This document shows positions 47,836 through 64,000 of a stretch of 64,000 nt of DNA, one piece after another; position 1 is the stretch's first letter; each line of letters starts with the position of its first letter. The stretch lies in the NCBI GenBank assembly GCA_964647565.1, contig CAZYIM010000003.1, positions 1 to 64,000 on the forward strand, in the 5' to 3' direction. The translations under genes and the position numbers were made by a program. The notes under the pieces were generated by a model. That model saw only the letters and a program-made list of their open reading frames with translations. It was not told the DNA's origin and ran no database searches. Source of the DNA: an uncultured Methanosarcinales archaeon (lineage in GTDB: Archaea > Nanobdellota > Nanobdellia > Woesearchaeales > CAZYIM01).

Positions 47836-47903
47836 TCTTGACCTCTTTTTAAGAAACCTTGGTATTAGTTTTATAAAAATGTTTCTAAAGGCAAGTTAAC
47901 TAT

Positions 47904-48027
47904 AAAATAAGCATTCACCCACGGCACAGACGCCCAAAAGCTACACTTTTGTGCTACTCCGCTGACTTGAATCCTCAACTCCGTAGAGGAACCCAGTCAG
48001 CTCCGCCTGGCCGTGAATGCTTATTTT
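47904..48027 (-). repeat. Dispersed structured intergenic element, copy 7
   Basis: 15-bp outer IR AAAATAAGCATTCAC/GTGAATGCTTATTTT; core closely related to copy 5. Confidence 0.8.
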
Positions 48028-48091
48028 TGCACAATATTTTTAAATGTCTGTCCTCTTTTTTCAGACTATAACATAGTTGGGGGCATAATTA

Positions 48092-49591
48092 ATGCGAGAT
48101 TTAGATACATTGGGGCCTATTGACTGGGGTCATGATACTGCTCATCAGAGGACAAAGATCTACGTATGCGAGCTATGTAGTAAAGCATTTTTAACCAGGT
48201 TCCAGCGTAATTACAAGGCTAAGATGCGAAACGTCTTATTTTCTTTTAAAAACTTTACAGATGCCCGGGCCTGTTATCATAAGAGGGATATTAAGGATTT
48301 TGGCAAGAGCCTGATAAATTTGTTGATAGTTAAACCCAGGTTTGCAGTGAAGATACTGAAGATGCTTACCAGATATGGTAGAAAACTGATTAAAGTTGTA
48401 GAAAGCTTTACTCCTGATAAGCTGCCAACAATGTCTAAAAGGAAGATTCTTGAAGCCCTTAATAAGGCAGAGTTGTTGTATATAGAATATATGGGCTGGA
48501 TAATCATTCCTGAGCTGTCTATAGATTATGTTGAGGATCAATTCCATAAAGAGCTAGAAAAGAGGTTTGGGAGTAAAGCCAGGGATTTTTTTGCTATATT
48601 GACTGCAAATGCTTACAGTACATATCTTAATGATGAAGAGAATGAGTTGAGGATCATTCTTGAGATGGTCAAGGACAATGATGAATTAGCGGCTAATCTC
48701 GATGATTTTGGTAAGCTGAGAGCCTCTCTTAAGAAAAATCCCAAACTTTGGTCTTTGATTGAAAAGCACACTAAGAGATTTTTTTGGATAAATTTCAACT
48801 ATGTAGATACCAAACCTCTAAAGGAGGTGGATTTTGTTAAAAAACTGGTTGAACTGGCAAAAGAAAAACCAGTCAAGATCAATCAGATGCTCAGCAGGAA
48901 GGAAAACCTGTTGAAAAAACTAAATCTCAAGAAAAAACACAAACTTTCTGCATTGATATCTGCACTGGAACTGCTTCCAGCTGTACAGGACAGGCGAAAG
49001 GCTTATCTTATACAGTTTGCATATCACATGAACGAGCTTTTCAAGGAGCTGGCGAATAGGACAGGCATTGCAGAGGACCATTTTTGTTCTATGAAATACT
49101 CGGAAATAATAGATGTTGTAAAAACAGGCAAATTCAACTTGAAAAAGCTTGAAAAGCGAAAGAAGCGTTTCATTGCTTTTACCCATGACCAGATGATTGA
49201 TTGGTATAATGGTGAAACTGCAATTAAGGTTGAGAAGAAGATTGCACCTGTAAAGATCAAGAAAAATATTAAAGAATTTCGTGGCAGGATTGCATCTGCT
49301 GGAAAAGCCAAAGGTAGGGTTGCGCTTGTTACATCTGCAACCCAGATAAAAAAAGTCAAGAAAGGCAATATCCTGGTCTCATCCAATACAACTCCTGACT
49401 ATTTACCTGCAATGGAAAAGGCCGCAGCTATTATAACCGAGAAAGGAGGCATTGCAAGCCATGCAGCTGTTGTCAGCAGAGAGTTGGGAGTGCCCTGTGT
49501 AACAGGGATTCTTAACATCACCAATGTCTTGAAGGACGGCGATATTGTGGAGGTCGATGCAGATGAAGGCGTTGTGAGGAAGATAGAATGA
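48092..49591 (+). CDS. Array gene 1: helical domain + phosphohistidine swivel (PEP-utilizer mobile) domain
   Basis: C-terminal TTPDY...TEKGGIASHAAVVSRELGVPCV...GDIVEVDA. Confidence 0.9.
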   Translation: MRDLDTLGPIDWGHDTAHQRTKIYVCELCSKAFLTRFQRNYKAKMRNVLFSFKNFTDARACYHKRDIKDFGKSLINLLIVKPRFAVKILKMLTRYGRKLIKVVESFTPDKLPTMSKRKILEALNKAELLYIEYMGWIIIPELSIDYVEDQFHKELEKRFGSKARDFFAILTANAYSTYLNDEENELRIILEMVKDNDELAANLDDFGKLRASLKKNPKLWSLIEKHTKRFFWINFNYVDTKPLKEVDFVKKLVELAKEKPVKINQMLSRKENLLKKLNLKKKHKLSALISALELLPAVQDRRKAYLIQFAYHMNELFKELANRTGIAEDHFCSMKYSEIIDVVKTGKFNLKKLEKRKKRFIAFTHDQMIDWYNGETAIKVEKKIAPVKIKKNIKEFRGRIASAGKAKGRVALVTSATQIKKVKKGNILVSSNTTPDYLPAMEKAAAIITEKGGIASHAAVVSRELGVPCVTGILNITNVLKDGDIVEVDADEGVVRKIE

Positions 49592-51000
49592 ATTTTTTTA
49601 GCAGGACGAATTGGGATGAATTAGCTCATGAAGAGCGAGGACATGTCTTTCCAACATATTTGTATTGGAGATCTGTTCAGTTAGCCTGCAAAATTATTGA
49701 TTGTTCTCCTGGTTTGTTTGGAGTTTGGTACAAGGATGATGGTTTTAGTTGGATGACAACGAAAGGCGCATTGGCCAATCCCGGCAAGCAGATTTTAGCA
49801 AGATTGGAGAAAGATGAGGCTTTTCTTAACAAAATCGTAGATGCCAATCTTATTGGCGTTCCTAAGATGCTGGCTGCTTCTGAATGGTTTGCGCAGGATT
49901 TGTCAGAAAAAAAGGGGGATGAACTCTACAGGAGATGGCAGGTTTTTTATGCTGATTTCATGGATATGATGCAATACAGTATTTTTGGAACTGTCATGGA
50001 GTTTGAAGAACCCATCCTCAGCGATAAATTGCTTAAGATACTTGTTGAGAAGGTTGGCGGGCAGAAAGCAGGCCAATATTTTTCAGAACTTACCTTGCTT
50101 ACTGAGATTACTGTGGCTCAAAAAGAGCAGCTTGAAATGATGGCTTTGGAAGAAAGGAATCTGGAACAACATTGGAAGAAATATGCCTGGATTGCTTTCA
50201 ACTATGATGGGCCTGGCTGGACTTTTGAAGAGATGAAAAAAAGATTCGCCAAAAGACATGAGTTGAAAGAAGTCGATATGGTTGCCAGGAAAAAGAGACA
50301 GGAGGAGATTGAAGAAAAACTCGGCTTATCAGATCATGAGAAGTACTTGTTCAGGACCCTGAGGACTTTGGGATTTTGGAAGTTCGAGAGAAAGTTAATG
50401 AATGGCAAATCCCACTACATGCTTCAAAACCTGTTTGAGGAAATCGCCAAAAGGCACGACATAAGTTTAGAAGATGCCAAGTCCATACTTCCTTCTGAGA
50501 TGAAGACTGGTTTGGTCGATGAAGTGTTGGATAAGAAAATCCTGAAACTAAGGCGCAGATCATCAATTGCAGTTTACAAAGGCTATGAAACTTATGAACT
50601 GTTTACTGGAAAAGAGGCTTTCCAACTGGAAAAAGATATAGAAGCAAGTCTGAAGGTTGATACGAATGTTTCAGAAATCAGAGGATCAACAGCGTACAAA
50701 GGAACAGCTAAAGGCAGAGTCAGGATTGTGAACACTCCTGCAGACATGGAAGGCTTTGTTGCAGGTGATATATTGGTTTCCAAATCAACATCTCCTGAGA
50801 TAATAACTGCTATGAAAAATGCAGCGGCGATTGTGACAGATTCTGGCGGGATAACCTGCCATGCTGCGATTGTGGCCCGTGAACTTAAAGTGCCCACAAT
50901 CATAGGTACAAAGTTCGCTACCAAGATTTTGCAGCAAGACGAACTTGTTGAGGTCGATGCAGATAAAGGTGTAGTCACGCTTTTGGATAAGAAAAAATGA
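49588..51000 (+). CDS. Array gene 2: helical domain + phosphohistidine swivel domain
   Basis: TDSGGITCHAAIVAREL; ATGA overlap. Confidence 0.9.
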   Translation: MNFFSRTNWDELAHEERGHVFPTYLYWRSVQLACKIIDCSPGLFGVWYKDDGFSWMTTKGALANPGKQILARLEKDEAFLNKIVDANLIGVPKMLAASEWFAQDLSEKKGDELYRRWQVFYADFMDMMQYSIFGTVMEFEEPILSDKLLKILVEKVGGQKAGQYFSELTLLTEITVAQKEQLEMMALEERNLEQHWKKYAWIAFNYDGPGWTFEEMKKRFAKRHELKEVDMVARKKRQEEIEEKLGLSDHEKYLFRTLRTLGFWKFERKLMNGKSHYMLQNLFEEIAKRHDISLEDAKSILPSEMKTGLVDEVLDKKILKLRRRSSIAVYKGYETYELFTGKEAFQLEKDIEASLKVDTNVSEIRGSTAYKGTAKGRVRIVNTPADMEGFVAGDILVSKSTSPEIITAMKNAAAIVTDSGGITCHAAIVARELKVPTIIGTKFATKILQQDELVEVDADKGVVTLLDKKK

Positions 51001-52061
51001 TAGATAAGTCAAAGCATTACCAAAGGATGTTCCAGGGAGGCGGACATTGGTATATCTTAGCAGACATCTTCATAAATAATTACAAGAGCATGGATGTCCT
51101 GGTCACTTTCATTGATAATAGATATACGACCTATTTACCCAAGGCAAATGAGAAAAAGGCACTTGATGATGGTCTCAAACTGTTTTCAAGTCCTAAGCTT
51201 TTCAAAGCATATGCTGATGGCTATATGAAATTCAGACAATTATCAGACAAGTTTTTTCAAGGATTAAAGAAACCAATATCCAGATCAGGACTAAAAAAAG
51301 CAATGGATATTTTCATTAAGAACTTCTATTATTATTCAAGGACAGAGTACTTCTACCTAGATAAGGCATTCCAGAATTCAACCAATAATCCAACCTTGAA
51401 GAATAATCTTAAACAAATGGAGAAAATCAAGTTTGACGGCAGAGCTTTCATGAACAAGATATTTCTTGAAAAAAATGGATATCTGGTCAAAATAAAGAAA
51501 ATATTATCCGCCCAATTTGATATTGAAGGGGATGCGTTCCAGATGTACTCAGTCAATGAGATGTTAAATCTCTTTGACGGTTTCAGATTGAGTGATGCAG
51601 AGATTAAAAATAGAGCGAGAGCTTATTTGATGATGTTCAATAACAATAAAATCGATTATTATGAAGGTGAAACCGCTGAGAAAATGATAAAAGAGTTCAC
51701 GGATGATCAAAATCTTAGCAAATCAGAACTTAAAGGTGTAATTGCTAGTAAGGGCAAAGCTGTTGGCAAGGCCAGGATTATAGAATACAATTTCAACTTT
51801 GAAAAATCCAAAAAGACCATTGACGCAATGAAAAAAGATGAGATCCTGATTGCAGAAGTAACATCGCCAGAATACATGGTTGCATGCCAAAAGGCCGCAG
51901 CAATCGTTACCAACCAGGGTGGTATGCTTTCCCATGCCGCTGTTGTGTCCAGAGAGATGGACATTCCCTGTGTTGTCGGCACTGGCAATGCAACTGCTGT
52001 CTTCAAGACAGGTGACATGGTCGAGGTTGATGCAGATAATGGTGTGGTGAGGAAGATATAA
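50997..52061 (+). CDS. Array gene 3 (short class): helical domain + phosphohistidine swivel domain
   Basis: TNQGGMLSHAAVVSREM; ATGA overlap. Confidence 0.9.
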   Translation: MIDKSKHYQRMFQGGGHWYILADIFINNYKSMDVLVTFIDNRYTTYLPKANEKKALDDGLKLFSSPKLFKAYADGYMKFRQLSDKFFQGLKKPISRSGLKKAMDIFIKNFYYYSRTEYFYLDKAFQNSTNNPTLKNNLKQMEKIKFDGRAFMNKIFLEKNGYLVKIKKILSAQFDIEGDAFQMYSVNEMLNLFDGFRLSDAEIKNRARAYLMMFNNNKIDYYEGETAEKMIKEFTDDQNLSKSELKGVIASKGKAVGKARIIEYNFNFEKSKKTIDAMKKDEILIAEVTSPEYMVACQKAAAIVTNQGGMLSHAAVVSREMDIPCVVGTGNATAVFKTGDMVEVDADNGVVRKI

Positions 52062-53347
52062 TGGAAATGCGCAATAATCCCTCTAAATGGTATTACTGGG
52101 GAAGATGGGTTTCAGTAATGCTTTTCACATCTCAATGGATTGATTTCAAAAAGACAACCACTTTCAAGGAGATGGGATTAGGTTCACTTTCTGGTTCTAT
52201 GAAGCTATTAAACAGCTATTATTATTTATTTAAGGAAGATGTTGAATACGTAAATAAGATCATTATTGAAAAATTTGAAAGGGATCGTAGTTGGTTTGAC
52301 AGGCTCTTCCTATTATTTGATCAACAAACAGTAGAAATGAATGAGTTGGAGAACAAAACTGATCTGAAGCAGTTTATCCTGACCCTGAAGGATTATCTGG
52401 GTGGGGCAGTGCTGATTGCATTCATTGACATCTGCCTGGAAAACTATCTGAATAAAATGTGCGCACAAAAGAAAATTCCTTTATTTCTGATAAATGCTCA
52501 TATAAATATCCCCAGGAACACACCCTTAATGGATTACAAAGATAGACTGAGAAAATTAGACAAAAGCAGGCTGAATGATTATGTAAAGGAATTTGCCTGG
52601 GTTGGAACTCATGGATTCCAGGGCACAAACTTGACAAAAGCCAAGGTTTTAGCTGAGTTAGAGTCCTTAAGTCCAATACAAACGGAAGTTGTTTTGGAAA
52701 TACCTGCCGGATTTGAAGATATAGTTCGGATTACCTCAGAATTGGCATACCATCGTGCAAACATAATAGAGACTGCTGACAAAATTAGCTTTGGCTATTG
52801 GACGCAGCTTAAGAATTTGGGCAAGCAGCATGATTTATCCTTTATTGAGATTGTCTCTCTGACTTCTGATGAACTGGTTAACTTGATTGATAATGGTACT
52901 ATACCGATCCATCTTAGCCAAAGAAAGAAATATTTTGGACTGATCCAGATAAATGGTAAAAAAGAGGTTTTATTAGGAGCGAAACTCAAGATGGAATTGG
53001 ATATTCATGATACTACACTAAAAGTTAACCTGCTGGAGGGTGTTACAGCCTATCCTGGAAAAGTCCAAGGAAAAATAACCACTATGAGGGATGTGAATGA
53101 TTTTGGAAAGATTAAGGAAGGAGACATCCTTGTTGCTCCTGAGACCACTCCTGATTATCTTGTTGTGATGAATAAAGCAAGTGCGATTGTGACAGATAAT
53201 GGAGGATTGACATGTCATGCTGCGATTGTGGCCAGAGAGATGAAAAAACCCTGTGTGATCGGAACTAAAGTTGCCACTCAAGTCTTTAAAGATGGTGATA
53301 TGGTCGAGGTTGATGCAGATAATGGTGTTGTGAGGAAGATAGAATGA
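52061..53347 (+). CDS. Array gene 4: helical domain + phosphohistidine swivel domain
   Basis: TDNGGLTCHAAIVAREM; TAATG overlap. Confidence 0.9.
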   Translation: MEMRNNPSKWYYWGRWVSVMLFTSQWIDFKKTTTFKEMGLGSLSGSMKLLNSYYYLFKEDVEYVNKIIIEKFERDRSWFDRLFLLFDQQTVEMNELENKTDLKQFILTLKDYLGGAVLIAFIDICLENYLNKMCAQKKIPLFLINAHINIPRNTPLMDYKDRLRKLDKSRLNDYVKEFAWVGTHGFQGTNLTKAKVLAELESLSPIQTEVVLEIPAGFEDIVRITSELAYHRANIIETADKISFGYWTQLKNLGKQHDLSFIEIVSLTSDELVNLIDNGTIPIHLSQRKKYFGLIQINGKKEVLLGAKLKMELDIHDTTLKVNLLEGVTAYPGKVQGKITTMRDVNDFGKIKEGDILVAPETTPDYLVVMNKASAIVTDNGGLTCHAAIVAREMKKPCVIGTKVATQVFKDGDMVEVDADNGVVRKIE

Positions 53348-54759
53348 ATAAAGAGAATTGGATGGTAGTGGTATCTTTTAGGACAGAGCTTCTGACAGAA
53401 GCTCTTCTTCATAAGGGTTATAGGGAAGGCATCCCTGAAATGTTTCCCAAACTGCCTTCTTTCAGGAACCGAATGATCATTGATAATGATATCTACATAG
53501 ATCTAAATGAGATCAACAAGTTGAAAGAGTACATCAACCAAGATATATTCAAGAAAGGAAATCATATCTACAATACGATCAAAAACCAAATCCAGATATT
53601 TCTTGATTTTGTTCAAGAGTTGGATATTACAAGCAAAATTCCTACAGAGGAGCTTATAGAAACAATAGAGGACTTTTTACAGTTATATAAATATGCGGTT
53701 GGACCTATAGGACTTCCAACCACAATAGATCTTTTGCTTGATGAAAAAATTGTAGAAATGCTTGAAAAAGAAGGTTTTAATGATGTTGAGCAGAGTTTCA
53801 ATAAAATCGCTATCTCCAAGAAAAGTATTGAGACCAACCAGGAGCATCTTGACTTGCTGGACCTGGCAATAAAATTAAAGGGAATTTCATCAGATTCTGC
53901 TAAATTTATTGGTTTGGTAGAAAAACATTCTAAAAAATATGGTTGGGTGAGGTCTACCTTATTACAGATCCATCCCTATGACTCGCAGAAGATAATTGAT
54001 GAGATTAAATCGATTAAAGATCCTGAAAAGGAAAAAGAGAGGCTTTTGAAGCAGAGGGCAGAACAGGTCAAGTCAGCGAAAGAGATAATTGAGAAAATCA
54101 AATCTTCTGAGGGCAAGGCTCTTGCAAGGTTTTTGCAAAAAGCAGTCTACTACAGGACTGCACGATTGGAATGGTTAAACAAGGCCTGTTATCTTAGTAA
54201 ACCTTTGCTGGATCAAGCTGCTCATATTTTAGGCATAAAATATGATGAATTGATTTATTTGCTGCCTGAAGAGATTATTCAAGGCCTTAAAGCAGGGCAG
54301 CTGGAACTGGACCCTAAAACTATATGTGAACGGATGAAAGGCTATGCCTTTGTTTCTGATAATAATGTAGAAAACATACTTTTCACTGGAAAAGAGCTTG
54401 AGAAATTAAAACAACAGTTTTCAAAGTCTGAAGAAGGCGATATGATCCAAGGTATGGTAACCTGTAAGGGGAAAGTAGAAGGACGCGCCAAGATAATCAA
54501 AGACAGGAGGGATCTTGCTAAGATTGAAGATGGGGACGTTCTAGTAACTCGCTTGACCACACCCGATTTCATAGTAGCCATGAAAAAGGCAGTTGCAATA
54601 GTCACGGATTTAGGCGGTATCACATCTCATGCAGCCATTGTATCCAGAGAACTCGGCAAGCCCTGCATTGTCGGTACAGGTAATGCGACAAAGGTCTTTA
54701 AGGACGGCGATATGGTAGAGATTGATGCCAACAAGGGTATTGTGAGGAAGATTACATGA
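53344..54759 (+). CDS. Array gene 5: helical domain + phosphohistidine swivel domain
   Basis: TDLGGITSHAAIVSREL; ATGA overlap. Confidence 0.9.
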   Translation: MNKENWMVVVSFRTELLTEALLHKGYREGIPEMFPKLPSFRNRMIIDNDIYIDLNEINKLKEYINQDIFKKGNHIYNTIKNQIQIFLDFVQELDITSKIPTEELIETIEDFLQLYKYAVGPIGLPTTIDLLLDEKIVEMLEKEGFNDVEQSFNKIAISKKSIETNQEHLDLLDLAIKLKGISSDSAKFIGLVEKHSKKYGWVRSTLLQIHPYDSQKIIDEIKSIKDPEKEKERLLKQRAEQVKSAKEIIEKIKSSEGKALARFLQKAVYYRTARLEWLNKACYLSKPLLDQAAHILGIKYDELIYLLPEEIIQGLKAGQLELDPKTICERMKGYAFVSDNNVENILFTGKELEKLKQQFSKSEEGDMIQGMVTCKGKVEGRAKIIKDRRDLAKIEDGDVLVTRLTTPDFIVAMKKAVAIVTDLGGITSHAAIVSRELGKPCIVGTGNATKVFKDGDMVEIDANKGIVRKIT

Positions 54760-55871
54760 ATTTGAATAAAGAATCTATAAAACACTATCTAAGACAACAT
54801 AAAATAGATGATTTTCTATTAGAGTTCGAAGCAGAAGGATTAAAATTGTTATTTCAGGAGTTGATGTACGAACATTATTATCCTGAAAAATCCTTGATGA
54901 TTTTTAGAAATAATATTGTTAAATCACTGATACTCAACTCAGTATGGAATAATAAAGGGGAAGAAGGCATTAAAAAATTATCCGATCCTGAGGACACAAC
55001 GTTCAAAGATATTGAGGTAAATATTAAAAAATTGAAAAATGAAATATCTGTTTTAGCAACAAAAACTAATCTTACTAAGAATGATGTAATATCTGCTTTT
55101 GAAATATTTGAGAATGCTGCTCAAGAGTATGCTTTTTTTAACATGGCCCATTTTGAGAAAGCCTACGAATGTTCTGATAAAAATGAGATCCTCTCAAAGA
55201 ACATAGGAATCGTAGAAAATTTAAAAGATAAAGTTAAAGTCGATTTTAATAAAATATTCTTCTTTTCAGATTGTTATTGGACTGATCTTCTAAAGAAAAT
55301 ATGTGGCCAATTCAATATTGATGAAGGGTTGATTGAGTGGCATATGAAAGAAGAGTTATTAGCTCTATTTGAAGGAGAAACAGTTTCATCAAATGAGATT
55401 GAACAAAGAAAAAGAGCTTATGTTTTTTATGAGTTTGAAAATAAAAAATTGTTTATTAAAGGTGACGTTGCAGATAGATTTATCTCTATTCTTGAAAATC
55501 AACAACAGAATGAACGGACTTCTGAAATATTTGGTATGGTTGCGAATGTCGCTTCTGGTCAAGTGATTGGCAGAGTTAAAATTATTAATGTGAACTACGA
55601 TGATCTTACAGAGACTCAAAGAAAAATGAGTGAGATGGATGAAGGGGATATTCTGATCTCTCGCACAACAGATCCTAATCTGCTTAGTGCTTGTAAGAAA
55701 GCAGCCGCCATTGTAACTGATGTGGGAGGTATGCTTTCCCATGCAGCGATTGTCTCAAGAGAGTTAGGGAAACCATGTATTGTCGGAACAAAGATCGCAA
55801 CAAAGGTACTGAAGGATGGTGATCTAGTTGAAGTGGATGCAGACAATGGCGTTGTGAGGAAGATTACATGA
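54756..55871 (+). CDS. Array gene 6 (short class): helical domain + phosphohistidine swivel domain
   Basis: TDVGGMLSHAAIVSREL; ATGA overlap. Confidence 0.9.
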   Translation: MNLNKESIKHYLRQHKIDDFLLEFEAEGLKLLFQELMYEHYYPEKSLMIFRNNIVKSLILNSVWNNKGEEGIKKLSDPEDTTFKDIEVNIKKLKNEISVLATKTNLTKNDVISAFEIFENAAQEYAFFNMAHFEKAYECSDKNEILSKNIGIVENLKDKVKVDFNKIFFFSDCYWTDLLKKICGQFNIDEGLIEWHMKEELLALFEGETVSSNEIEQRKRAYVFYEFENKKLFIKGDVADRFISILENQQQNERTSEIFGMVANVASGQVIGRVKIINVNYDDLTETQRKMSEMDEGDILISRTTDPNLLSACKKAAAIVTDVGGMLSHAAIVSRELGKPCIVGTKIATKVLKDGDLVEVDADNGVVRKIT

Positions 55872-57199: not shown

Positions 57200-58701
57200 A
57201 ATTTCATCAAGTGTTGAAAGAGATCGAGAAACATACATGGTGGTCTGAGGATGCACCTGCCACCATCCAGACAGTGGTCACCCTGTTCCATTGTTTCTTG
57301 AGACAGCATGATGTCATCTCTGCGAAACTTCTGACTAAGATGTTTGTTGGTATGAAAGGAGATTTCCTCTATGAGAGGACACCTGAGGATGAAAAGCTCC
57401 GGACATATAAGATATGCTTTAATAGGATGAAAAAGGATCCTGATTTTATAGACAAGTGCAGGACTGATTTCAACAAGAGATTGAAGCAAGTCTTTAGAGA
57501 GGGTGATAAGTTCATAAAAAATAGGACATCTATGACTGATCAAGAGTTGGGGAAATCTTATAAGAAATTCACTTCAGATTATGTAAATAACCTTTCCTTT
57601 GCTGCCACAATTGAGGGTGTTGATATTTTCACTGCATATCATCTTGAAGATGAGGTTAAAAAAGAGATCGGTGTTTCTGATGTAAAAGTCAGGGATATCA
57701 TTAGTACTTTGTCTCTTTTCACAGAGTTAAGCTTTATGGAGAAGGAGAGGCTAAATTTCCTTAGATTCTGTCTGAAACATTTTAAAGATATTAGATCTAA
57801 AAACAAAACATCTGCTTTGATGAGAGATTTGGAGAAGCACTCTGATTTGTTTTCACATAGCCTGAATAATTTCAAGAACATAATTTATCTTGACACCCAA
57901 TTTTTCTTGAAAAAGACCCAGCAAGAGATCAAGCGTGGAAAGACAGAGTTGAAAAAAGAGTATGACAGCCTCCGGACTAAGATAACCAAGCTGAAAATAA
58001 AACAGGAAAAAATCTATGCGCTCTATGACTTTTCAGATGATCTCAAACTCCATTTCAAGATGATAAGGGCTTTGGGTTATAGCGCAGATAACAGGAAATC
58101 TAATCTGATAAAGGCCAACGAATACCTCAAATTCTATTGTGATGAGATATCAAGAAGATTAGGGATTGGTTGGGACGATTTGAAGCTTTATACTTTTACT
58201 GAACTGAGTGACTTTTTGTTGAAAGGATTTCGGCTTACAAAAAACGAACTCAAAAAAAGATCAGATTTGGTTGTGATTGTATTGAATCTGGAAGGGAAAC
58301 GGGATGTTAAAGAGACTATGTTCTATGGAAAACAGGCTGAAGAAATTCTTAGAAGGACTGCTCATCAATCTGACTCAGATGAACTTGAAGGCCAGATTGC
58401 TTCTGCGCCTGTAGAGTCTCTGCGGGGGAGAGTAAAAATAGTCTTGGATGTTTATGAGACCAAATTCAAGAAAGGTGAGATTCTTGTTACGACCATGACC
58501 CGGCCGGAGTTTGTGCCCTTGATGAGAAAGGCCTCTGCGATCATAACAGAGGAAGGAGGATTAACATGTCATGCGGCCATCCTTAGCAGGGAACTGCAAG
58601 TCCCATGCATAATTGGCACCAAGGTGGCGACAAGATTATTGAGAGATGGCGACCTGGTTGAGATGGATATGAAGAAGGGGATTGTCAGAAAGATAAAATG
58701 A
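57196..58701 (+). CDS. Array gene 8: helical domain + phosphohistidine swivel domain
   Basis: TEEGGLTCHAAILSREL; ATGA overlap. Confidence 0.9.
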   Translation: MKFHQVLKEIEKHTWWSEDAPATIQTVVTLFHCFLRQHDVISAKLLTKMFVGMKGDFLYERTPEDEKLRTYKICFNRMKKDPDFIDKCRTDFNKRLKQVFREGDKFIKNRTSMTDQELGKSYKKFTSDYVNNLSFAATIEGVDIFTAYHLEDEVKKEIGVSDVKVRDIISTLSLFTELSFMEKERLNFLRFCLKHFKDIRSKNKTSALMRDLEKHSDLFSHSLNNFKNIIYLDTQFFLKKTQQEIKRGKTELKKEYDSLRTKITKLKIKQEKIYALYDFSDDLKLHFKMIRALGYSADNRKSNLIKANEYLKFYCDEISRRLGIGWDDLKLYTFTELSDFLLKGFRLTKNELKKRSDLVVIVLNLEGKRDVKETMFYGKQAEEILRRTAHQSDSDELEGQIASAPVESLRGRVKIVLDVYETKFKKGEILVTTMTRPEFVPLMRKASAIITEEGGLTCHAAILSRELQVPCIIGTKVATRLLRDGDLVEMDMKKGIVRKIK

Positions 58702-60116
58702 AAAAATCCAAAAATAAATGGTGGCATTGGTTTGAAAGAGGTGCAGTGCCAGTCATCTACTGCAATCTTCGGGACTCGCCTCATGCATATCGAAAAGAGT
58801 TTTTTGATTTTGCAAAAACTTATTTGCGGCATATCTTTATCTGGCATCAGAACAAGACCTGGCTCTATTGGCGGCAGCAGGATCTTGATAATTTTGCAGA
58901 GTTTCTAAAACAGCAAATCTTGGACAATACAGATTTCTTGGAGCAATTGGAAAAATATCACTATGCACATGCAGAAGCATTGATAGATTATTGCAAGGAT
59001 TTTCATAATATGGATTTTTCCAAGAAGACAGACAAGCAGCTGCTTCAATACTTTGAGAAGTTTGAGAAACTCTACAATGAACTTGCACTTTATACCTATA
59101 TTCCTGTTATCGGCACTTTTCCTCTTGAAGGTATCTTAGAGCCTTACCTGAAAAAGAAGCTAAAGAAATCAATGAGTTATGGCGTTTGCTTCTCTTTGCT
59201 AACACATCATGGCCACAAATCCTGGTCGAGAAAAGAAGAGGAGGATCTGTTCGAGATTTCCAAATGTCAAGATGCTGATAAATTGCTTGATGAACATACT
59301 GAGAAGTTTGCATGGTTAAATCTGGGTTATAAGTTCCTTGGAAAGCCATTGACTAAGGAATATTTCAAGGAAAAGCTCGAAAAGATAAAAACTTTAGAGC
59401 CTTTGCCCAAGGATATTGACATTAAGACAGAAAAACTGGTCAAAGAGCTTGATATTGATGAAGATCATCAGCTCCTGTTTAAGGCTTTGGGCAAGATCAT
59501 CTGGCTGAAGGAATACAGGGACGGGATTTACACTTGGTCGCATCATGAATTCAATTTCCTGATAAAAGAGATCCTAAAAAGATTCAATATTCCAAAAGAA
59601 GCAGGTTTCTATATGAAGATCTGCGAATACAAAGATGTGCTCAAAGGGAAAGATTTTGATACTGATTGCATAAAGAAAAGAAAAGCAACATTTGTCTGGC
59701 TTTGGGATGATACGGAATATTACTATGAGGGTGAATCTGCCAATAAGAAACTGGCAGAAGAATTGGATGGCTGGAACCTTGAAGCTGAAGACAGGGATGT
59801 TATACAAGGCTCAGTCGCATCCCCCGGCAAAGTACGCGGAGTTGCTAAGATTGTTGAAAACGAATCACAGTTAAGCAAGGTTGAAAAAGGGGATATCCTG
59901 ATAACCTACATGACCAAGCCCAGCTTTTTGCCTGCAATGGAAAGAGCAGCTGCGATTGTGACCAACGAAGGCGGAGTGACATGCCATGCAGCTATTGTAT
60001 CCCGAGAGATGAAAAAGCCCTGTGTGATCGGAATTAAAGTTGCCACTCAAGTCTTTAAAGATGGTGACATGGTTGAGGTTGATGCAGATAAAGGTGTAGT
60101 TAAGAAAATAAAATGA
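58698..60116 (+). CDS. Array gene 9: helical domain + phosphohistidine swivel domain
   Basis: TNEGGVTCHAAIVSREM; ATGA overlap. Confidence 0.9.
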   Translation: MKKSKNKWWHWFERGAVPVIYCNLRDSPHAYRKEFFDFAKTYLRHIFIWHQNKTWLYWRQQDLDNFAEFLKQQILDNTDFLEQLEKYHYAHAEALIDYCKDFHNMDFSKKTDKQLLQYFEKFEKLYNELALYTYIPVIGTFPLEGILEPYLKKKLKKSMSYGVCFSLLTHHGHKSWSRKEEEDLFEISKCQDADKLLDEHTEKFAWLNLGYKFLGKPLTKEYFKEKLEKIKTLEPLPKDIDIKTEKLVKELDIDEDHQLLFKALGKIIWLKEYRDGIYTWSHHEFNFLIKEILKRFNIPKEAGFYMKICEYKDVLKGKDFDTDCIKKRKATFVWLWDDTEYYYEGESANKKLAEELDGWNLEAEDRDVIQGSVASPGKVRGVAKIVENESQLSKVEKGDILITYMTKPSFLPAMERAAAIVTNEGGVTCHAAIVSREMKKPCVIGIKVATQVFKDGDMVEVDADKGVVKKIK

Positions 60117-61117
60117 AGAAAACAACATTTAAGAAATTTTATACGCGGGAAAGATCCTTGTTCTATTTCTATATCTGGCAGATTGCAGAGCTTAATACTC
60201 CTGAAATGGAGTTCACCCGAATTGTCATTAGGTTCAAGTCCGATGAGCAGCCTAATGTCTGGTATGATCCTAAAGAGTTAGACAGGTATTGTTGTCTTGT
60301 GAAAAAATGGTCGGATGATTTTGATTTCGTTAAAAAAGAGGTTGATAATTATTTAGCCATTACAAAACAATTAGATGAGTATATCCAAGGAATCAGACCA
60401 TTGAAGACTATACAGGATTTAAAAAAACTTAAAGACTTGTATCTTGAGTATTGGCCACGCTTGTCTAATGTCTTTTCGATCCCAGATTTTAGTGAAAATG
60501 ATCAATCCAAACAATATGCTCTTAAGGTTCGCGCAGAGACAGAGAGGTTTTCAGATGAAATCAATGACCTTATTGTCAATTTTGTTATTAAAAGGTTTCC
60601 AGAGCTCAAAGAGTTTGTTAATGTGATACTTCCTGAAGAGATTTTCAATCTTGAAGATGAAGAGTTTAGAAAAAATATGCGGCCAGATCTTATGAAACGC
60701 CGTAACAATACATTCTATTTTTATAATAATAAGATATATTTTGAAGAAGAGTTTAAGAAGCAGGATGTCTGGCTAAAAGAAGAAGAGCCCGAATCGAATG
60801 ATTTTGCAAAAGGAGAAGTTGCTTTCAAGGGAGTTACTACTGGCACAGCCAGGGTTGTAAACCTGCAAAAAGATCTTGAAAAAATCCAAGACGGAGATAT
60901 CCTAATAACCCAGATCACAGCCCCCTGCTTTGTGCCTTTCCTAAAAAAGGTGAAAGCGATTGTTGCAGATGAAGGTGGAATAGCAAGCCATCCAGCAATA
61001 TTAGCAAGAGAGCTAAAGATACCTTGTATTGTTGGCACTAAATATGCTACCAAGATATTCAAAGACAACGATTTGATTGAAGTGAACGCAGATAAAGGAG
61101 TAGTAAGTAGAAAATGA
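60113..61117 (+). CDS. Array gene 10 (short class): helical domain + phosphohistidine swivel domain
   Basis: ADEGGIASHPAILAREL; ATGA overlap. Confidence 0.9.
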   Translation: MKKTTFKKFYTRERSLFYFYIWQIAELNTPEMEFTRIVIRFKSDEQPNVWYDPKELDRYCCLVKKWSDDFDFVKKEVDNYLAITKQLDEYIQGIRPLKTIQDLKKLKDLYLEYWPRLSNVFSIPDFSENDQSKQYALKVRAETERFSDEINDLIVNFVIKRFPELKEFVNVILPEEIFNLEDEEFRKNMRPDLMKRRNNTFYFYNNKIYFEEEFKKQDVWLKEEEPESNDFAKGEVAFKGVTTGTARVVNLQKDLEKIQDGDILITQITAPCFVPFLKKVKAIVADEGGIASHPAILARELKIPCIVGTKYATKIFKDNDLIEVNADKGVVSRK

Positions 61118-62607
61118 AAGAATTCAAAACCATTCGTAAGAGAGTGAATATGCTGAATCCTGGAATCTGGAATCCGTTGAGCCAAACAAGTGATTTTGTT
61201 AAGAAGACACACGGTATTCGAATGAAAACTGTCTATAGTTATTACAAGAATCATAATTTGATCTCCTTTTATGAAACCACTGAACTGGAAAAAGTTTCAG
61301 ATTTTATTTTTAAAAAGATAATAAACAACAAGAGTTATGTCACAATTTGTTATGGGCAGCAGAAAGAAGCAGGTAAAAAGAGTATCGAACTTTACAAGAA
61401 GATTCTAGATATGGATCTGGACAAAAAATCTGTCAAAGAACTGTTAGATATTTATAGGAAAATAAAAGAGAGCTGGCTATATTTTGACGGTTTGAATGTG
61501 CTTCCATGGTTCCAGGGCAGTGATAAGCTTTCAGAACACATTTCTACAATTTTAAGGATTGAGTATAATATTCCTGAGCCAGATATACAATTGTTGTTGA
61601 CTACGCCTGAGAAATCGTTTACAATGGATGAGGAGGCTGGATTCCTAAAGCTGCTCCTGAGAGTAAAAGAAAAGAAGTTGGAACCTCTTTTCAGTAAGGA
61701 GAAGTTAATTAGAACTGATCTGCCTGAAGATATTCTTGAGGGGATAAACGAACTTGCTAAAGCATTCCACTGGGTTCCATTTGACTATGATGGTCCTGCA
61801 GTCTATGATGAGACTCATTATATCAAGCAGATCAGACTACATATTGATGATCCTTTCGATCAAATAACTGTAAAGATTGATCACATAGCTAATTATGAAA
61901 AAGAGATGAACGCAAAGCATTCAGAACTGTTGAAGAGATATTCAGTAAGCCAGCACCTGCAACGATTGTTATCAGACCTCTATCTTCTTACTGTAATGAC
62001 TGATGAAAGAAAGGCTGTTCATTTCAGGCTGCACCTAGTTTTTAGAAATGTTCTAGAATCCCTCAGTACCAAGCTCAGCATCCTATTCCTGGACATCAAG
62101 TATCTTATATATGATGAGATTAAGGAATTCCAAAATGATTCTGCTAGGCTAAAAAAAATCTCTCAGACAAGGCAGGATGAACCATTCCTAGTGTATAAGG
62201 TTGAAGATCATGATATTGAATTTATCCGAGGGAAAAAAATGGAGGATATCCTGCACCGAGCTCTTGACATGGATGACGTTGACTTTGTCAAGGGACAGGT
62301 TGCTTCTATAGGTGTGGGAACGGTTACTGGTACTGCAAGGCTTATCCTTGAGACTGATGATCTTCCCAAGATGAAACAGGGAGATATCCTGATTGCAACC
62401 ATGACAACCCCTAATCTGGTACCTGCAATGAGAAAAGCTGCAGCAATTGTGACAGATGAAGGCGGAGTTACATGCCATGCAGCTATTGTATCAAGAGAAC
62501 TTGGTCTGCCATGCATAATTGGTACTGATAATGCGACTGTATTATTTAAGGATGGCGACCTTGTAGAGGTTGATGCAAAGAAAGGCATCGCGAGGAAACT
62601 GAAATGA
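61114..62607 (+). CDS. Array gene 11: helical domain + phosphohistidine swivel domain
   Basis: TDEGGVTCHAAIVSREL; ATGA overlap. Confidence 0.9.
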   Translation: MKEFKTIRKRVNMLNPGIWNPLSQTSDFVKKTHGIRMKTVYSYYKNHNLISFYETTELEKVSDFIFKKIINNKSYVTICYGQQKEAGKKSIELYKKILDMDLDKKSVKELLDIYRKIKESWLYFDGLNVLPWFQGSDKLSEHISTILRIEYNIPEPDIQLLLTTPEKSFTMDEEAGFLKLLLRVKEKKLEPLFSKEKLIRTDLPEDILEGINELAKAFHWVPFDYDGPAVYDETHYIKQIRLHIDDPFDQITVKIDHIANYEKEMNAKHSELLKRYSVSQHLQRLLSDLYLLTVMTDERKAVHFRLHLVFRNVLESLSTKLSILFLDIKYLIYDEIKEFQNDSARLKKISQTRQDEPFLVYKVEDHDIEFIRGKKMEDILHRALDMDDVDFVKGQVASIGVGTVTGTARLILETDDLPKMKQGDILIATMTTPNLVPAMRKAAAIVTDEGGVTCHAAIVSRELGLPCIIGTDNATVLFKDGDLVEVDAKKGIARKLK

Positions 62608-64000
62608 ACGAGATAAACCATATTTTCAAAAGAAAGATTGTAAAGACAAAAGATTTTTCGGTGTTTGATTTTCCAGAAGGTTCAGATTATAGGATAATTG
62701 TTTCTAGGACAACTTGCTTGATGTTAAGATGTGTTTTTCCTTTTATATTGTGCAGCAGATCAAATTACAAGAAACGGGTCGGATATGAGCATTGTTATAC
62801 AGCTGAATATCCTGACCAGTTGATAGTTTTTGACTTTAACCAGTTGGCAGAAGAAGCAAAGATCCTTGAAGAACTATATAAGAAAGATAAGAATATATTT
62901 ATCAAACTTGCAAACCAATGCGAGAAAGAAAGCAAACCGCTTATGGATTTTTCAAAAAAGATCAAAAAAACAGATTTCTCAAATTTACCTGATGAAGAGC
63001 TGCACATCCTGCTTGGCAAATACTTTGATATGGTTGTCAATTTCGACATATTCCTGCTCATACCTCATGCTGCACAAAAGTATCTTGAAAGTGCTCTCAA
63101 TGAATATCTTGAAGGTTTAGACATTAATGATGATAAACGAAGGGAATATCATGATATTTTTTGCACAGCTTACAAAAATAACTTCGGATTCTTTGAGCAG
63201 AAAGATATACTTGAGATCTCGGTTGAATACAAAAACCATGGATTAACATCTGAGATACAAGAGCGCGTAAAAGAACATGCCTTTGAATTTGGCCATATAG
63301 GTTGCAAATATGGTATTGGCAAGGTCTGGGAATATGATGACATCCTAGAACGAGTTAAATTCCTCTCAAAAGAATATCCTGACAAGAAATTGAATGACCT
63401 GCTAGTCTTTGATGCAGAAGTCGAACAGAAACTAAAACAAGCTCTGACTGAACTGAAACCGCCTGTAAAGATAAAGGAGCTTATAGATATTACCAGGACA
63501 TATATCTATATTAGGACATTGAGAACAGATGTGCTTTCAGGCAGTTACGCCAATATAATTCCAATGCTATTTGAGATTGGTAGGAGGAACAAACTTGATA
63601 ATGAGGAAATAATGTTATGTTTTCCTGATGAGATAATTGAAGGAAGATTTCCTTCGAAAGAAACTATAAAAGAGAGGGAATGTGTTGCTATAAAAGCACT
63701 AGATGGAAAGCTCTATTATATGGAAGGTAAAAATGCAAAAAAAGTGGTTAAGAAGATATTATTCCTACTTGAAAAAAAAGAAGGCAACATCAATACAGAT
63801 CAAGTTGAGGGCAATATAGCAAACAAGGGCAAGATCACTGCAAAAGTAAAGATTCTAGTGGACAACTCTGATCTGGGAAAAGTGAATGAGGGCGATATAA
63901 TTGTGGCTGCAATGACGACTCCGGATTTTGTTCCTGCTATGGAGCGCGCAGCAGGTTTTATAACCAATGAGGGCGGCATAACATGCCACGCAGCCATCAT
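62604..64000 (+). CDS. Array gene 12 (runs off window): helical domain + phosphohistidine swivel domain
   Basis: Manual translation from ATG 62604 (MNEINHIFKRKIV...) is in frame with terminal MTTPDFVPAMERAAGFITNEGGITCHAAI. Confidence 0.88.
   Translation, partial: MNEINHIFKRKIVKTKDFSVFDFPEGSDYRIIVSRTTCLMLRCVFPFILCSRSNYKKRVGYEHCYTAEYPDQLIVFDFNQLAEEAKILEELYKKDKNIFIKLANQCEKESKPLMDFSKKIKKTDFSNLPDEELHILLGKYFDMVVNFDIFLLIPHAAQKYLESALNEYLEGLDINDDKRREYHDIFCTAYKNNFGFFEQKDILEISVEYKNHGLTSEIQERVKEHAFEFGHIGCKYGIGKVWEYDDILERVKFLSKEYPDKKLNDLLVFDAEVEQKLKQALTELKPPVKIKELIDITRTYIYIRTLRTDVLSGSYANIIPMLFEIGRRNKLDNEEIMLCFPDEIIEGRFPSKETIKERECVAIKALDGKLYYMEGKNAKKVVKKILFLLEKKEGNINTDQVEGNIANKGKITAKVKILVDNSDLGKVNEGDIIVAAMTTPDFVPAMERAAGFITNEGGITCHAAI

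Follow-up and report, generated by a model that had tools for sequence, protein, structure and literature searches.

In the last 16 kb of the 64,000-nucleotide stretch of DNA that we analysed (the window; positions 1 to 64,000 of contig CAZYIM010000003.1, here C3), a marine DPANN-type archaeon carries a row of genes whose products join a variable N-terminal part to a C-terminal phosphohistidine swivel domain. This raises the question of where so many swivel proteins obtain their phosphate and on what they place it. An earlier note on the window had proposed that they are the substrate-specificity subunits of a split dikinase. At the level of sequence and structural models, this proposal is supported by a fold like that of rifampicin phosphotransferase (RPH), by fused orthologues and by co-occurrence with an ATP-grasp protein.

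Layout of the array and its genome context

The ORF list places 12 co-oriented module genes on the + strand at 48092-63998 of the window, encoding proteins of 334-501 aa. At 10 of the 11 junctions between them neighbouring genes overlap by four bases (ATGA), and at the remaining one by a single base. The features of the locus are:

47836-48091, + strand: upstream intergenic region, divergent from a Na+/H+ exchanger gene
47900-48045: GC-rich structured repeat in the upstream intergenic region (repeat copies and fold computed)
about 55 bases before the first ATG of the array: A/T-rich box TTTTTAAAT, read from the printed sequence; a putative promoter, judged from its letters
48092-49591, + strand: module gene 1, 499 aa, long class; N-domain 1-391, swivel 392-499; PF00391 E 1.8e-25
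49588-51000, + strand: module gene 2, 470 aa, long class; swivel 360-466; PF00391 E 2.7e-23
50997-52061, + strand: module gene 3, 354 aa, short class; swivel 242-354; PF00391 E 3e-26; modelled
52061-53347, + strand: module gene 4, 428 aa; swivel 322-428; PF00391 E 1e-28
53344-54759, + strand: module gene 5, 471 aa, long class; N-domain 1-363, swivel 364-470, catalytic His429; PF00391 E 1.4e-26; modelled, and the query for orthologue searches
54756-55871, + strand: module gene 6, 371 aa, short class; swivel 256-370; PF00391 E 3.9e-25
55868-57199, + strand: module gene 7, 443 aa; swivel 331-443; PF00391 E 2.1e-21
57196-58701, + strand: module gene 8, 501 aa, long class; swivel 393-501; PF00391 E 7.4e-25
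58698-60116, + strand: module gene 9, 472 aa, long class; swivel 365-472; PF00391 E 4.6e-26
60113-61117, + strand: module gene 10, 334 aa, short class; swivel 228-333; PF00391 E 4.4e-22
61114-62607, + strand: module gene 11, 497 aa, long class; swivel 388-497; PF00391 E 7.2e-27
62604-64000, + strand: module gene 12, running off the window and ending at C3:64118; 504 aa; swivel 397-504
C3:75751-76638: stand-alone ATP-grasp gene, 295 aa; inside the row, beyond the window
C3:78182-78901, minus strand: TrmB-type regulator, in the row region beyond the window

As the earlier note had expected, the row runs past the window. Eleven further module genes lie at C3:64115-80569, and the whole row (C3:48092-80569) comprises 23 module genes; the minimum of 12 given before holds, but the actual number is far larger. 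The 22 modules and the ATP-grasp encoded between 48092 and C3:78176 are probably produced together through translational coupling. TrmB-type regulators adjoin module genes at two loci, a HAD hydrolase lies within the C33 cluster, and a histidine-phosphatase-family gene adjoins a PPDK_N-like gene.

A Pfam scan detected PF00391 at the C-terminus of all 12 window proteins (E 1e-28 to 2e-21; 2.3e-12 for module 12 as truncated by the window end) and no other family at E <= 0.01. None of the 12 therefore has PPDK_N or PEP-utilizers_C, which agrees with the original observation that the proteins carry the His domain and neither an ATP-grasp nor a PEP barrel; in the suggested comparison of PF00391 with PF01326 and PF02896, PF00391 stood alone in 12/12. 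Aligning the modules shows the GGxx(S/C/A)H motif. Across the genome the catalytic His is kept in 47/47 aligned modules, and the His, GG and RE motifs are conserved in 46-47 of the 47. Of the features of the RPH-type small-molecule dikinase superfamily (RPH, PRK06241-like), the C-terminal swivel with its catalytic His is present, whereas PF01326 within the same chain is absent in 12/12 window proteins.

We counted 53 swivel matches and 47-48 modules in the assembly; the ~48 module genes occupy ~2.3% of the genome. The description of the host as a small-genome archaeon did not stand, as the assembly measures 2.68 Mb at a completeness of 87% compared to 0.5-2.1 Mb for relatives in its order.

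Divergent N-terminal domains and their predicted fold

The N-terminal parts of the window modules had been described as divergent, helical-looking and roughly 230-400 aa long. They span 227-396 aa and are mostly helical in the two available models, and pairwise identity among paralogues is 19-41%, with 43/47 N-domains matching at least one paralogue by BLAST. The closest pair in the row consists of module gene 4 and the gene at C3:74424-75719 (N-domains 39% identical). The N-domains are old, deeply diverged lineages. Modules fall into a long and a short class, with an acceptor range of 334-547 aa. Compared to the full-size long class, the substrate domain of the short class is trimmed by ~120 residues, and a profile-profile comparison gave no alignment of the first ~160 short-class residues with the long class.

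Structural models of one member of each class point to RPH. Residues 1-471 of the AlphaFold model of member 5 (pLDDT 92.4) aligned with residues 325-867 of RPH-Lm (PDB 5FBS/5FBT/5FBU, 5HV1) with Z 21.1 over 418-420 residues and an rmsd of 4.8-5.0, and the N-domain alone still gave Z 12.2-12.3 over 313-316 residues. Among PDB entries, this structure search found the N-domain covered by RPH-Lm alone, which is also unique among solved structures in spanning the whole module, and the domain order is shared. The model of member 3 (short class; pLDDT 87.4) aligned with residues 327-866 of 5fbt at Z 18.5 (303 residues). In both modelled members (2 of the 23 in the row), the fold of the RIF-binding domain directly precedes the swivel, and the predicted folds are neither ATP-grasp nor unrelated, the outcomes against which the earlier note had wanted its idea checked. 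The remaining members connect to these two through the BLAST matches among N-domains. By sequence, member profiles match RPH-Lm over profile positions 164/183-471 (E 5e-33), with an identity of only 15-22%.

The catalytic network of RPH (Arg666/Glu667/Lys670) appears only partly recognisable in the modules. HMMER aligned R271-L275 of member 5 to R666-K670 of RPH, and in most long-class modules a basic helix lines up with Arg666-Lys670. In the profile alignment 10/47 modules, mostly of the short class, have a gap at every compared column. The remaining 37 show R/K at the Arg666 column (271) in 25 cases, D/E at the Glu667 column (272) in 14, R at position 274 in 20 and K/R at the Lys670 column (275) in 21, as far as a sequence alignment can place these residues. 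The curated NCBIfam models RIF_Ptrans_rph and the PRK06241 subfamilies were not reached (e.g., 18-78 bits against a cut-off of 999). RPH acts on rifampin, whereas nothing ties the array modules to rifamycins.

An ATP-grasp protein within the row and in related genomes

RPH carries an ATP-grasp within its one polypeptide chain, whereas the modules have none. The shared stand-alone ATP-grasp that had been predicted to serve them is present inside the row, 12 kb past the window and near the 3' end of the row. Its gene starts 31 bases after one module gene and overlaps the next by one base. The protein is of the PEP-synthase type (PF01326, E 2e-94) and keeps the motifs GGKGANLGE, VRSSATAEDL..SFAGQ and E-W...Q-R, which are invariant among six orthologues. 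There is one such ATP-grasp for 22-23 modules on C3 and for 47-48 in the assembly.

The earlier note had left the donor as either an ATP-grasp or a PEP-dependent protein. A PEP-dependent donor is unlikely, since PF02896 barrels occur in the assembly only twice, within full-length PEP synthase and PPDK (frames of 805 and 884 aa), and the PF02896 search found no free PEP-binding barrel there. Two other PPDK_N-like proteins without swivel, on C20 (664 aa) and C5 (699 aa), could be alternative donors, and further ATP-grasp genes may be missing because the assembly is 87% complete.

In other genomes, ATP-grasp and module occur in one chain. Orthologues of member 5 are 41-47% identical, and 7 of 30 non-self matches of its N-domain are proteins of 541-800 aa with both PF01326 and PF00391. 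In the protein P0005 an ATP-grasp (17-321) comes first and a swivel (718-786) last, with the N-domain between them; over 309 columns this ATP-grasp shares 39% identity with the one in the array. One relative (G008) fuses an ATP-grasp and three modules in a single 1641-aa frame and another (G007) five modules in a 2815-aa frame; in G026 and G039 an ATP-grasp gene lies directly beside a module gene. Two PF01326 matches at E <= 1e-80, representing full-length PEP synthase and an ATP-grasp in a short frame of 296-360 aa (fused in G008), were found in 16/16 expansion genomes examined from the same order (G000 plus 5 and 10 relatives) and in 0/35 sampled relatives without expansion (<=4 PF00391 matches), counts that overstate the support because related genomes are not independent samples. 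The same one-to-many imbalance between ATP-grasp and modules is seen in 15 relatives.

Proposed mechanism and alternative explanations

We consider it likely that the module genes code for acceptor subunits of a split dikinase of the RPH/HpeHI type, in which one donor serves many acceptors. The domain identities and folds, the intact His of all modules, the ATP-grasp in the array, the fused orthologues and the co-occurrence support this. Each module would consist of an RPH-like substrate-binding domain followed by the phosphohistidine swivel, and ATP would be bound by the single 295-aa ATP-grasp protein of the same row. The swivel His of a module would dock on the ATP-grasp and take the beta-phosphate, with release of AMP and Pi; the charged swivel would then return to its own N-domain and hand the phosphate to the ligand held there. 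One ATP-grasp would charge all modules in trans by this dikinase chemistry, the substrates would be small molecules, and the row would be co-transcribed.

The mechanism of RPH is described in PMC4844700, and a 1:1 two-component form of such an enzyme has been published (PMC12167813). As far as that description goes, HpeI is the ATP-grasp and HpeH carries substrate domain and swivel, both are needed, AMP is the product and the His581Q variant is dead; the relatives with an RPH-like domain that it covers (RPH, HpeH, CreH, PpsA) all act on small molecules. According to the published accounts, HpeHI of Rhodococcus, CreHI of Corynebacterium and PpsAB of Thauera/Aromatoleum resemble the array in having a separate PEP-synthase-type ATP-grasp subunit, an acceptor in which an RPH-like substrate domain (so likened in the description) precedes a C-terminal swivel, and genes encoded together, as the ATP-grasp gene lies inside the row. 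They differ in that they are 1:1 pairs acting on phenolic substrates in free-living bacteria, whereas the archaeal array has one ATP-grasp per 22-23 modules in the row and ~48 genome-wide; their acceptors are also larger (~70 kDa; HpeH 71 kDa) than the array's, with its two size classes. PEP synthase and PPDK share parts with the system: array swivels and ATP-grasp score best against PEP synthase models, and these enzymes and the modules have the motif GGxT(S/C)HAAIV(S/A)RE in common. However, these enzymes have a TIM barrel (PF02896), a central swivel and a second substrate domain of a different fold, whereas the modules lack the barrel and carry the swivel at the C-terminus.

The same chemistry might instead be directed at proteins or polymers, making the modules regulatory or surface-modifying kinases. 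Enzymes derived from PPDK/PEPS with non-metabolite targets are on record in the accounts of VadK of M. tuberculosis and glucan water dikinase, TrmB-type regulators stand beside module genes, and the HAD hydrolase and the histidine-phosphatase-family gene fit reversible phosphorylation. We nevertheless regard such acceptors as unlikely, given that the whole N-domain models as the small-molecule-binding domain of RPH, that the characterised relatives, as described, are all small-molecule enzymes, and that Pfam assigned none of the 12 window proteins a domain for binding carbohydrates or interacting with proteins. Quite unlikely, too, is a ligase-type function in biosynthesis or salvage, in which the phosphoryl group activates a substrate for condensation or substitution as in the prodigiosin ligases PigC and RedH, which act via a phosphorylated intermediate. 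The NCBIfam models of these ligases match members, some well into the N-domain (member 1 residues 268-496 to PigC 644-880; member 11 residues 228-493 to PigC 608-879), and phosphatase-type neighbours are compatible with phosphorylated intermediates, but the matches reach ~50-80 bits against curated cut-offs of 1300-1350, RPH-like families score equally well or better, and PigC and RedH are single-chain enzymes.

We find it very improbable that the swivel proteins serve as phosphocarriers in a relay, PEP-dependent or otherwise (such as PTS-like signalling), independently of the neighbouring ATP-grasp. The swivel is common to PTS enzyme I, with weak NCBIfam and PDB matches; these are confined to the swivel, and enzyme I has a PEP-binding C-terminal domain and an HPr-binding helical subdomain, whereas the 12 modules are without PF02896. 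The lack of a free barrel in the assembly also argues against a relay, as does an ATP-grasp that sits inside the row, is fused to modules elsewhere and co-occurs with expansions. Least credible of all, and extremely improbable, is an array that is an assembly artefact or a set of decaying, functionless duplicates. The source runs are shallow (depth ~3-5), short-read contigs end at conserved swivel segments as loose ends, and a 10-N scaffold gap (C3:67035-67044) breaks module gene 15. However, every frame is open with tight ATGA junctions, the catalytic His is intact throughout, the N-domains have diverged, and orthologues of member 5 exist elsewhere. Nor did the array arise from collapsed recent repeats: exact nucleotide identity between members of the 23 genes extends over 33 bases at most. 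Five junctions (1/2, 2/3, 3/4, 4/5 and 11/12) are bridged without differences by short contigs from other runs (four marine/seawater DNA runs of two studies, possibly the source samples).

The earlier note knew of no characterised array of this kind, and our literature searches likewise found none described. A split dikinase in which one ATP-grasp serves many acceptors would be the one-to-many form of the known two-part RPH-type kinases. Since their N-domains are old and deeply diverged, the ~48 modules of this archaeon most likely phosphorylate many different, probably small, molecules.

Extent and integrity of the module row

Twelve co-oriented ORFs of 334-501 aa lie on the plus strand between positions 48092 and 63998, with the last one left open by the end of the window. 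Of their 11 neighbouring pairs, 10 overlap by 4 bases (ATGA) and the remaining pair by 1 base. PF00391 (PEP-utilising enzyme, mobile domain), the swivel, was found at the extreme C-terminus of all 12 window proteins (E 1e-28 to 2e-21; 2.3e-12 for the truncated last gene), and no other Pfam family matched them at E ≤ 0.01, neither the ATP-grasp family PF01326 nor the PEP/pyruvate barrel PF02896. The earlier note had claimed a 12-gene swivel row without either of these domains that continues off the window; the scan bears this out, and the row extends to 23 module genes on contig C3, a module being an N-terminal domain followed by a swivel. The NCBIfam matches of the window proteins were all sub-threshold, the best being the swivel part of PEP synthase. 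In several members, numbered by gene order from 48092, they reach upstream of the swivel into the pre-swivel region of models for rifampin phosphotransferase (RPH)-like proteins (PRK06241, RIF_Ptrans_rph) and PigC/RedH. The motif TD/E-x-GG-x-x-(S/C/A)-H-A-A-I/V-V/L-S/A-R-E is present in all eight aligned long members, and over 47 modules of the genome His429 is kept in all 47, with both the GG pair and R435-E436 present in 46-47. A conserved C-terminal peptide, G-V/I-V-R-K-I, is often coded GGxGTTGTGAGGAAGAT right before the ATGA of the next gene (e.g., 53320-53347, 54735-54759); this GAGG-containing stretch may double as the ribosome-binding site of the downstream gene.

Contig C3 measures 106 kb, the window being its first 64 kb, and the row runs on to 80569. 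The segment C3:48092-78176 holds 22 modules and one other gene with a largest gap of 31 bases. As called, 17 of its 22 junctions are 4-base overlaps; placing the start of gene 21 at the ATG at 74424, which fits the length of its 39%-identical paralogue, would give an eighteenth. One row gene is split by a 10-N scaffold gap at C3:67035-67044. Genome-wide, an HMM built from 11 complete swivel domains found 49 ORFs, and PF00391 gave 53 matches. The end of the row and the modules elsewhere are as follows.

Module genes beyond the contiguous part of the row
C3:78182-78901 (L001:14182-14901), minus strand: TrmB-type regulator, PF01978 E 3.6e-16, separating off the last module
C3:78956-80569: last row module, beyond the TrmB-type regulator gene
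Contig C30: cluster of four modules in three genes
Contig C33: cluster of four modules
Contigs C36, C8, C6 and C51: clusters of two modules each
Elsewhere in the genome: nine singleton modules

In total, the assembly contains 47 modules in 45 genes, two of which encode two-module proteins (995 and 999 aa), plus the gapped module gene. Together the module genes span 62,577 bases (62.6 kb), i.e., 2.3% of the 2.68-Mb assembly. At 87% completeness and 1.85% contamination, this assembly is larger than each of the approximately 340 sampled relatives (0.5-2.1 Mb); either its genome is unusually large for the order, or more than one population sits in the bin.

All module frames are open, and no two row genes share an exact DNA match longer than 33 bases, a length reached where the conserved KDGDMVEVDA is encoded. 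Two studies supplied four marine/seawater DNA runs that contain 60-77% of the sampled words. Their short contigs show no differences to the stretch and bridge junctions 1/2, 2/3, 3/4, 4/5, and 11/12, but the runs may be the source samples and thus do not independently confirm the full gene order. Loose contig ends lie where conserved swivel segments are encoded, as short-read graphs would lead one to expect. In one run, X1, a contig apparently joins position 64000 to 60049. This joint raised the possibility of recent gene conversion between the swivel-coding ends, which we rejected since the longest exact inter-gene match is so short; for the same reason we read the joint as an alignment ambiguity and not as a rearrangement.

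Just upstream of the array, at 47900-48045, lies a GC-rich, strongly folding element with terminal inverted repeats (minimum free energy -49.8 and -58.8 kcal/mol on the two strands). BLASTN detected eight more partial copies elsewhere in the assembly, among them one at C3:34644-34736 (83% identity) and others on C61, C4, and C24, and the element probably belongs to a structured repeat family.

Several other genes lie near modules. TrmB-family winged-helix regulators, three genes in total, are immediate neighbours of module genes at two loci, the second comprising L004:5816-6574 (plus strand) and L004:6575-7330 (minus strand); they may regulate the modules in response to ligands. A HAD-family hydrolase gene lies between two C33 module genes (L003:5192-5791, minus strand) and a histidine-phosphatase-family gene (L006:2451-3032, minus strand) adjoins a gene on C5 for a 699-aa protein with an ATP-grasp-like domain, so that phosphatases recur near the system. 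About 1 kb from the C30 cluster, a 691-aa protein (L002:10703-12778, minus strand) has a weak match to APH-type phosphotransferases (PF01636 E 5e-6), and a single unassigned 231-aa ORF (L002:10011-10706) lies between the two.

Fold and divergence of the N-terminal domains

The N-domains of 43 of the 47 modules match at least one paralogue (BLASTP, E ≤ 1e-3), typically at 19-30% identity, and the closest pairs are 39-41% identical. The N-domains thus make up one old family. In Listeria RPH, residues 1-314 are described as the ATP-grasp and 767-865 as the swivel, with the rifampin (RIF)-binding domain between them (PMC4844700). A profile of eight members matched Listeria RPH chains over profile positions 220-470 (E 4e-29), well upstream of the swivel, and a profile of 31 sequences did so over positions 164/183-471 (E 5e-33).

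Structure prediction agrees with the profiles. The AlphaFold2 model of member 5, built on a 31-row alignment, has a mean pLDDT of 92.4 and a pTM of 0.86, and its top Foldseek matches were Listeria RPH (E 3e-16, TM 0.57-0.59). Using VIA-align, residues 1-471 superimposed on RPH residues 325-867 with Z 21.1 (418-420 residues, rmsd 4.8-5.0). The N-domain alone (1-360) matched residues 325-744/751 of G527Y mutant structures of RPH with Z 12.2-12.3 over 313-316 residues, and the other strong matches of this model covered the swivel only. Some modules form a shorter class, and in profile-profile comparison only the last ~80 N-domain residues and the swivel align between the short and long classes, which raised the suspicion of a different N-domain in the short class. 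The model of the short-class member 3 (pLDDT 87.4) argues against this, as it matches residues 327-866 of the RPH structure 5fbt with Z 18.5 over 303 residues. With two of the 23 row members (3 and 5) modelled and both matching the RPH substrate region in the AlphaFold/Foldseek check that the earlier note had proposed, we read the short class as a predicted trimmed RPH-type domain.

The phosphate-handling network of RPH is reported to comprise Arg666, Glu667, and Lys670 (PMC4844700). In the HMMER alignment, R271-L275 of member 5 stands opposite RPH R666-K670. All the columns compared are gapped in 10 of the 47 modules, mostly of the short class; among the remaining 37, column 271 is R/K in 25, column 272 D/E in 14, column 274 R in 20, and column 275 K/R in 21. 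These residues are no more than suggestive of an RPH-type network in the long class. Across the whole N-domain, only E310 (42 modules) and R330 (40) are kept in at least 40 of the 47.

A candidate shared ATP-grasp partner

PF01326 (PPDK_N, ATP-grasp) occurs at five places in the assembly.

ATP-grasp proteins in the assembly
Contig C42: PEP synthase with PF01326, 805 aa
Contig C23: PPDK with PF01326, 884 aa
L005:4245-6239 (C20), minus strand: divergent PPDK_N-like protein, 664 aa, PF01326 E 3e-32
L006:3004-5103 (C5), minus strand: divergent PPDK_N-like protein, 699 aa, PF01326 E 7e-12
C3:75751-76638: stand-alone ATP-grasp gene, 295 aa, PF01326 E 2e-94, twenty-second gene of the row

The C20 and C5 proteins have a long uncharacterised C-terminal part without a swivel domain, and proteins like them are common in relatives with or without the module expansion. 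The earlier note had predicted a stand-alone ATP-grasp beyond the window, and it was found inside the row itself. Its gene starts 31 bases after the preceding module gene and overlaps the next by 1 base. The scores of the protein against the N-terminal regions of PEP synthase (E 9e-102) and of RPH-like families (1e-96 to 1e-81) are about equal, and it retains the motifs shared without change by six orthologues. PF02896 was found nowhere in the assembly outside the two long enzymes, nor was a stand-alone PEP-binding donor; a PEP-dependent donor is therefore not apparent.

Fusions in other genomes link the two parts. Among 8000 scored candidates, the member 5 N-domain had 30 non-self matches at E ≤ 1e-3 (31-47% identity), seven of which, 541-800 aa long, carry both PF01326 and PF00391. 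An eighth, P0031 (370 aa), runs from an ATP-grasp into the opening residues of a member 5-type N-domain. In the orthologous protein P0005, the order is ATP-grasp (17-321), N-domain, swivel (718-786), and its ATP-grasp is 39% identical to that of the row (E 2e-68). The related genome G008 encodes an ATP-grasp and three modules in a single 1641-aa frame (L023:1100-6025, minus strand), and G007 five swivel modules in a single 2815-aa frame (L020:4320-12767, minus strand). An ATP-grasp gene abuts a module gene in G026 and G039 and lies about 1 kb from one in G036.

The ATP-grasp also follows the expansion across genomes. PF00391 matches number 0-4 in 35 of 40 same-order relatives and 6, 12, 17, 21, and 27 in the other five. 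The present assembly and each of these five have two PF01326 matches at E ≤ 1e-80, i.e., a full-length PEP synthase and one ATP-grasp in a 296-341-aa frame (fused in G008), whereas none of the 35 has a second such match. Ten further genomes, picked from a wider sample solely for high swivel counts, each have one extra ATP-grasp in a 304-360-aa frame (E 8.5e-80 to 4e-111), in G243 on the same contig as several modules. The extra ATP-grasp is thus present in 16 of 16 expansion genomes and in 0 of 35 without expansion, a pattern and not a statistic because related genomes are not independent. Position, fusions, and co-occurrence strongly suggest that the modules are charged in trans by the ATP-grasp of the row, in support of the split dikinase with a shared partner that had been proposed from the window.

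It was only in 2025 that biochemical work established two-part RPH-type dikinases, as 1:1 pairs in phenolic catabolism (PMC12167813). In that study, the ATP-grasp HpeI has the ATP-grasp of RPH as its nearest structural homologue, and HpeH was modelled as RIF-binding-like plus swivel. Both proteins are needed, the main product is AMP, and the H581Q variant is inactive; HpeH alone transfers phosphate between substrates, and a stable HpeH-HpeI complex was not seen. CreHI and PpsAB are named there as homologues (PMC12167813). The present locus has the same parts, a separate ATP-grasp and substrate/swivel acceptors, but the ratio is one ATP-grasp to 23 modules in the row and about one to 48 in the genome. 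Module size and host also differ. Unlike single-chain RPH, the modules have no ATP-grasp in cis, and they reached no curated model; unlike PEP synthase and PPDK, they have no PEP/pyruvate barrel. In the main texts searched, we found no description of such arrays, although supplements could list such genes, and no dikinase or PEP synthase terms in the DPANN/Woesearchaeota comparative papers searched. One paper goes no further than counting rph-like genes among resistance-gene matches in CPR genomes.

Age, spread and proposed role of the repertoire

For 27 of the 47 modules, the best N-domain BLAST match among 51 modules from five relatives, which are part of those relatives' modules, outscores the best among the 46 paralogues. 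Member 5 has orthologues at 41-47% identity and is at most 27% identical to its own paralogues. It follows that the repertoire is old and did not arise by a recent local amplification. When 1.84 billion cluster representatives were searched with phmmer, the member 5 N-domain matched 567 proteins at E ≤ 1e-3, of which 117 passed 1e-10 and 17 passed 1e-30. Among the 150 matches listed, most are 440-510 aa long and match from near residue 1, i.e., have the split form, and a few are 750-2218 aa long. In genome contigs, this N-domain gave 249 pattern matches, of which tblastn confirmed none.

At least 10 swivel matches, with up to 18 scored per genome, occur in 22 of 300 sampled genomes of the phylum, all 22 labelled as the same order; these tallies include two genomes that are unpublished (1 and 4 matches). 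None of the 68 same-class genomes listed with a match has more than three. First-look swivel candidates number up to 42 in a relative (G299) vs. 56 in the present assembly. The one-to-many layout thus recurs patchily in the order. One member 5 orthologue, P0015, carries the source name 'Patescibacteria group bacterium', and bacterial and archaeal members are mixed among the Atlas neighbours, which are leads only. The P0-type ribosomal protein of the present genome (Ribosomal_L10 plus RL10P_insert) marks the organism as an archaeon.

The identity of the parts, i.e., ATP-grasp, RPH-like N-domain, and swivel, is well supported. More tentatively, and with somewhat less than even confidence, we propose that the single ATP-grasp charges about 48 interchangeable acceptor modules, forming a combinatorial kinome for metabolite capture or detoxification. 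Every module would represent an old lineage, specific for its own small molecules; such lineages would be shared and exchanged between ultra-small archaea and bacteria, and the giant multi-module proteins of relatives would be a fused form of the same machine. Such a kinome would let host-dependent cells trap or disarm many compounds from their hosts or neighbours.

The locus offers a clean way in for experiments: a single small ATP-grasp protein should charge all modules, and this would make mass spectrometry substrate screens practical. The layout would also illustrate how nature engineers enzymes from modules, pairing one shared subunit for energy coupling with exchangeable subunits for specificity. 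In organisms thought to live off others, some 48 different ATP-driven phosphotransferases would form one of the largest enzyme families. The system can be tested directly, and for the biology of ultra-small archaea and bacteria its interest is high.
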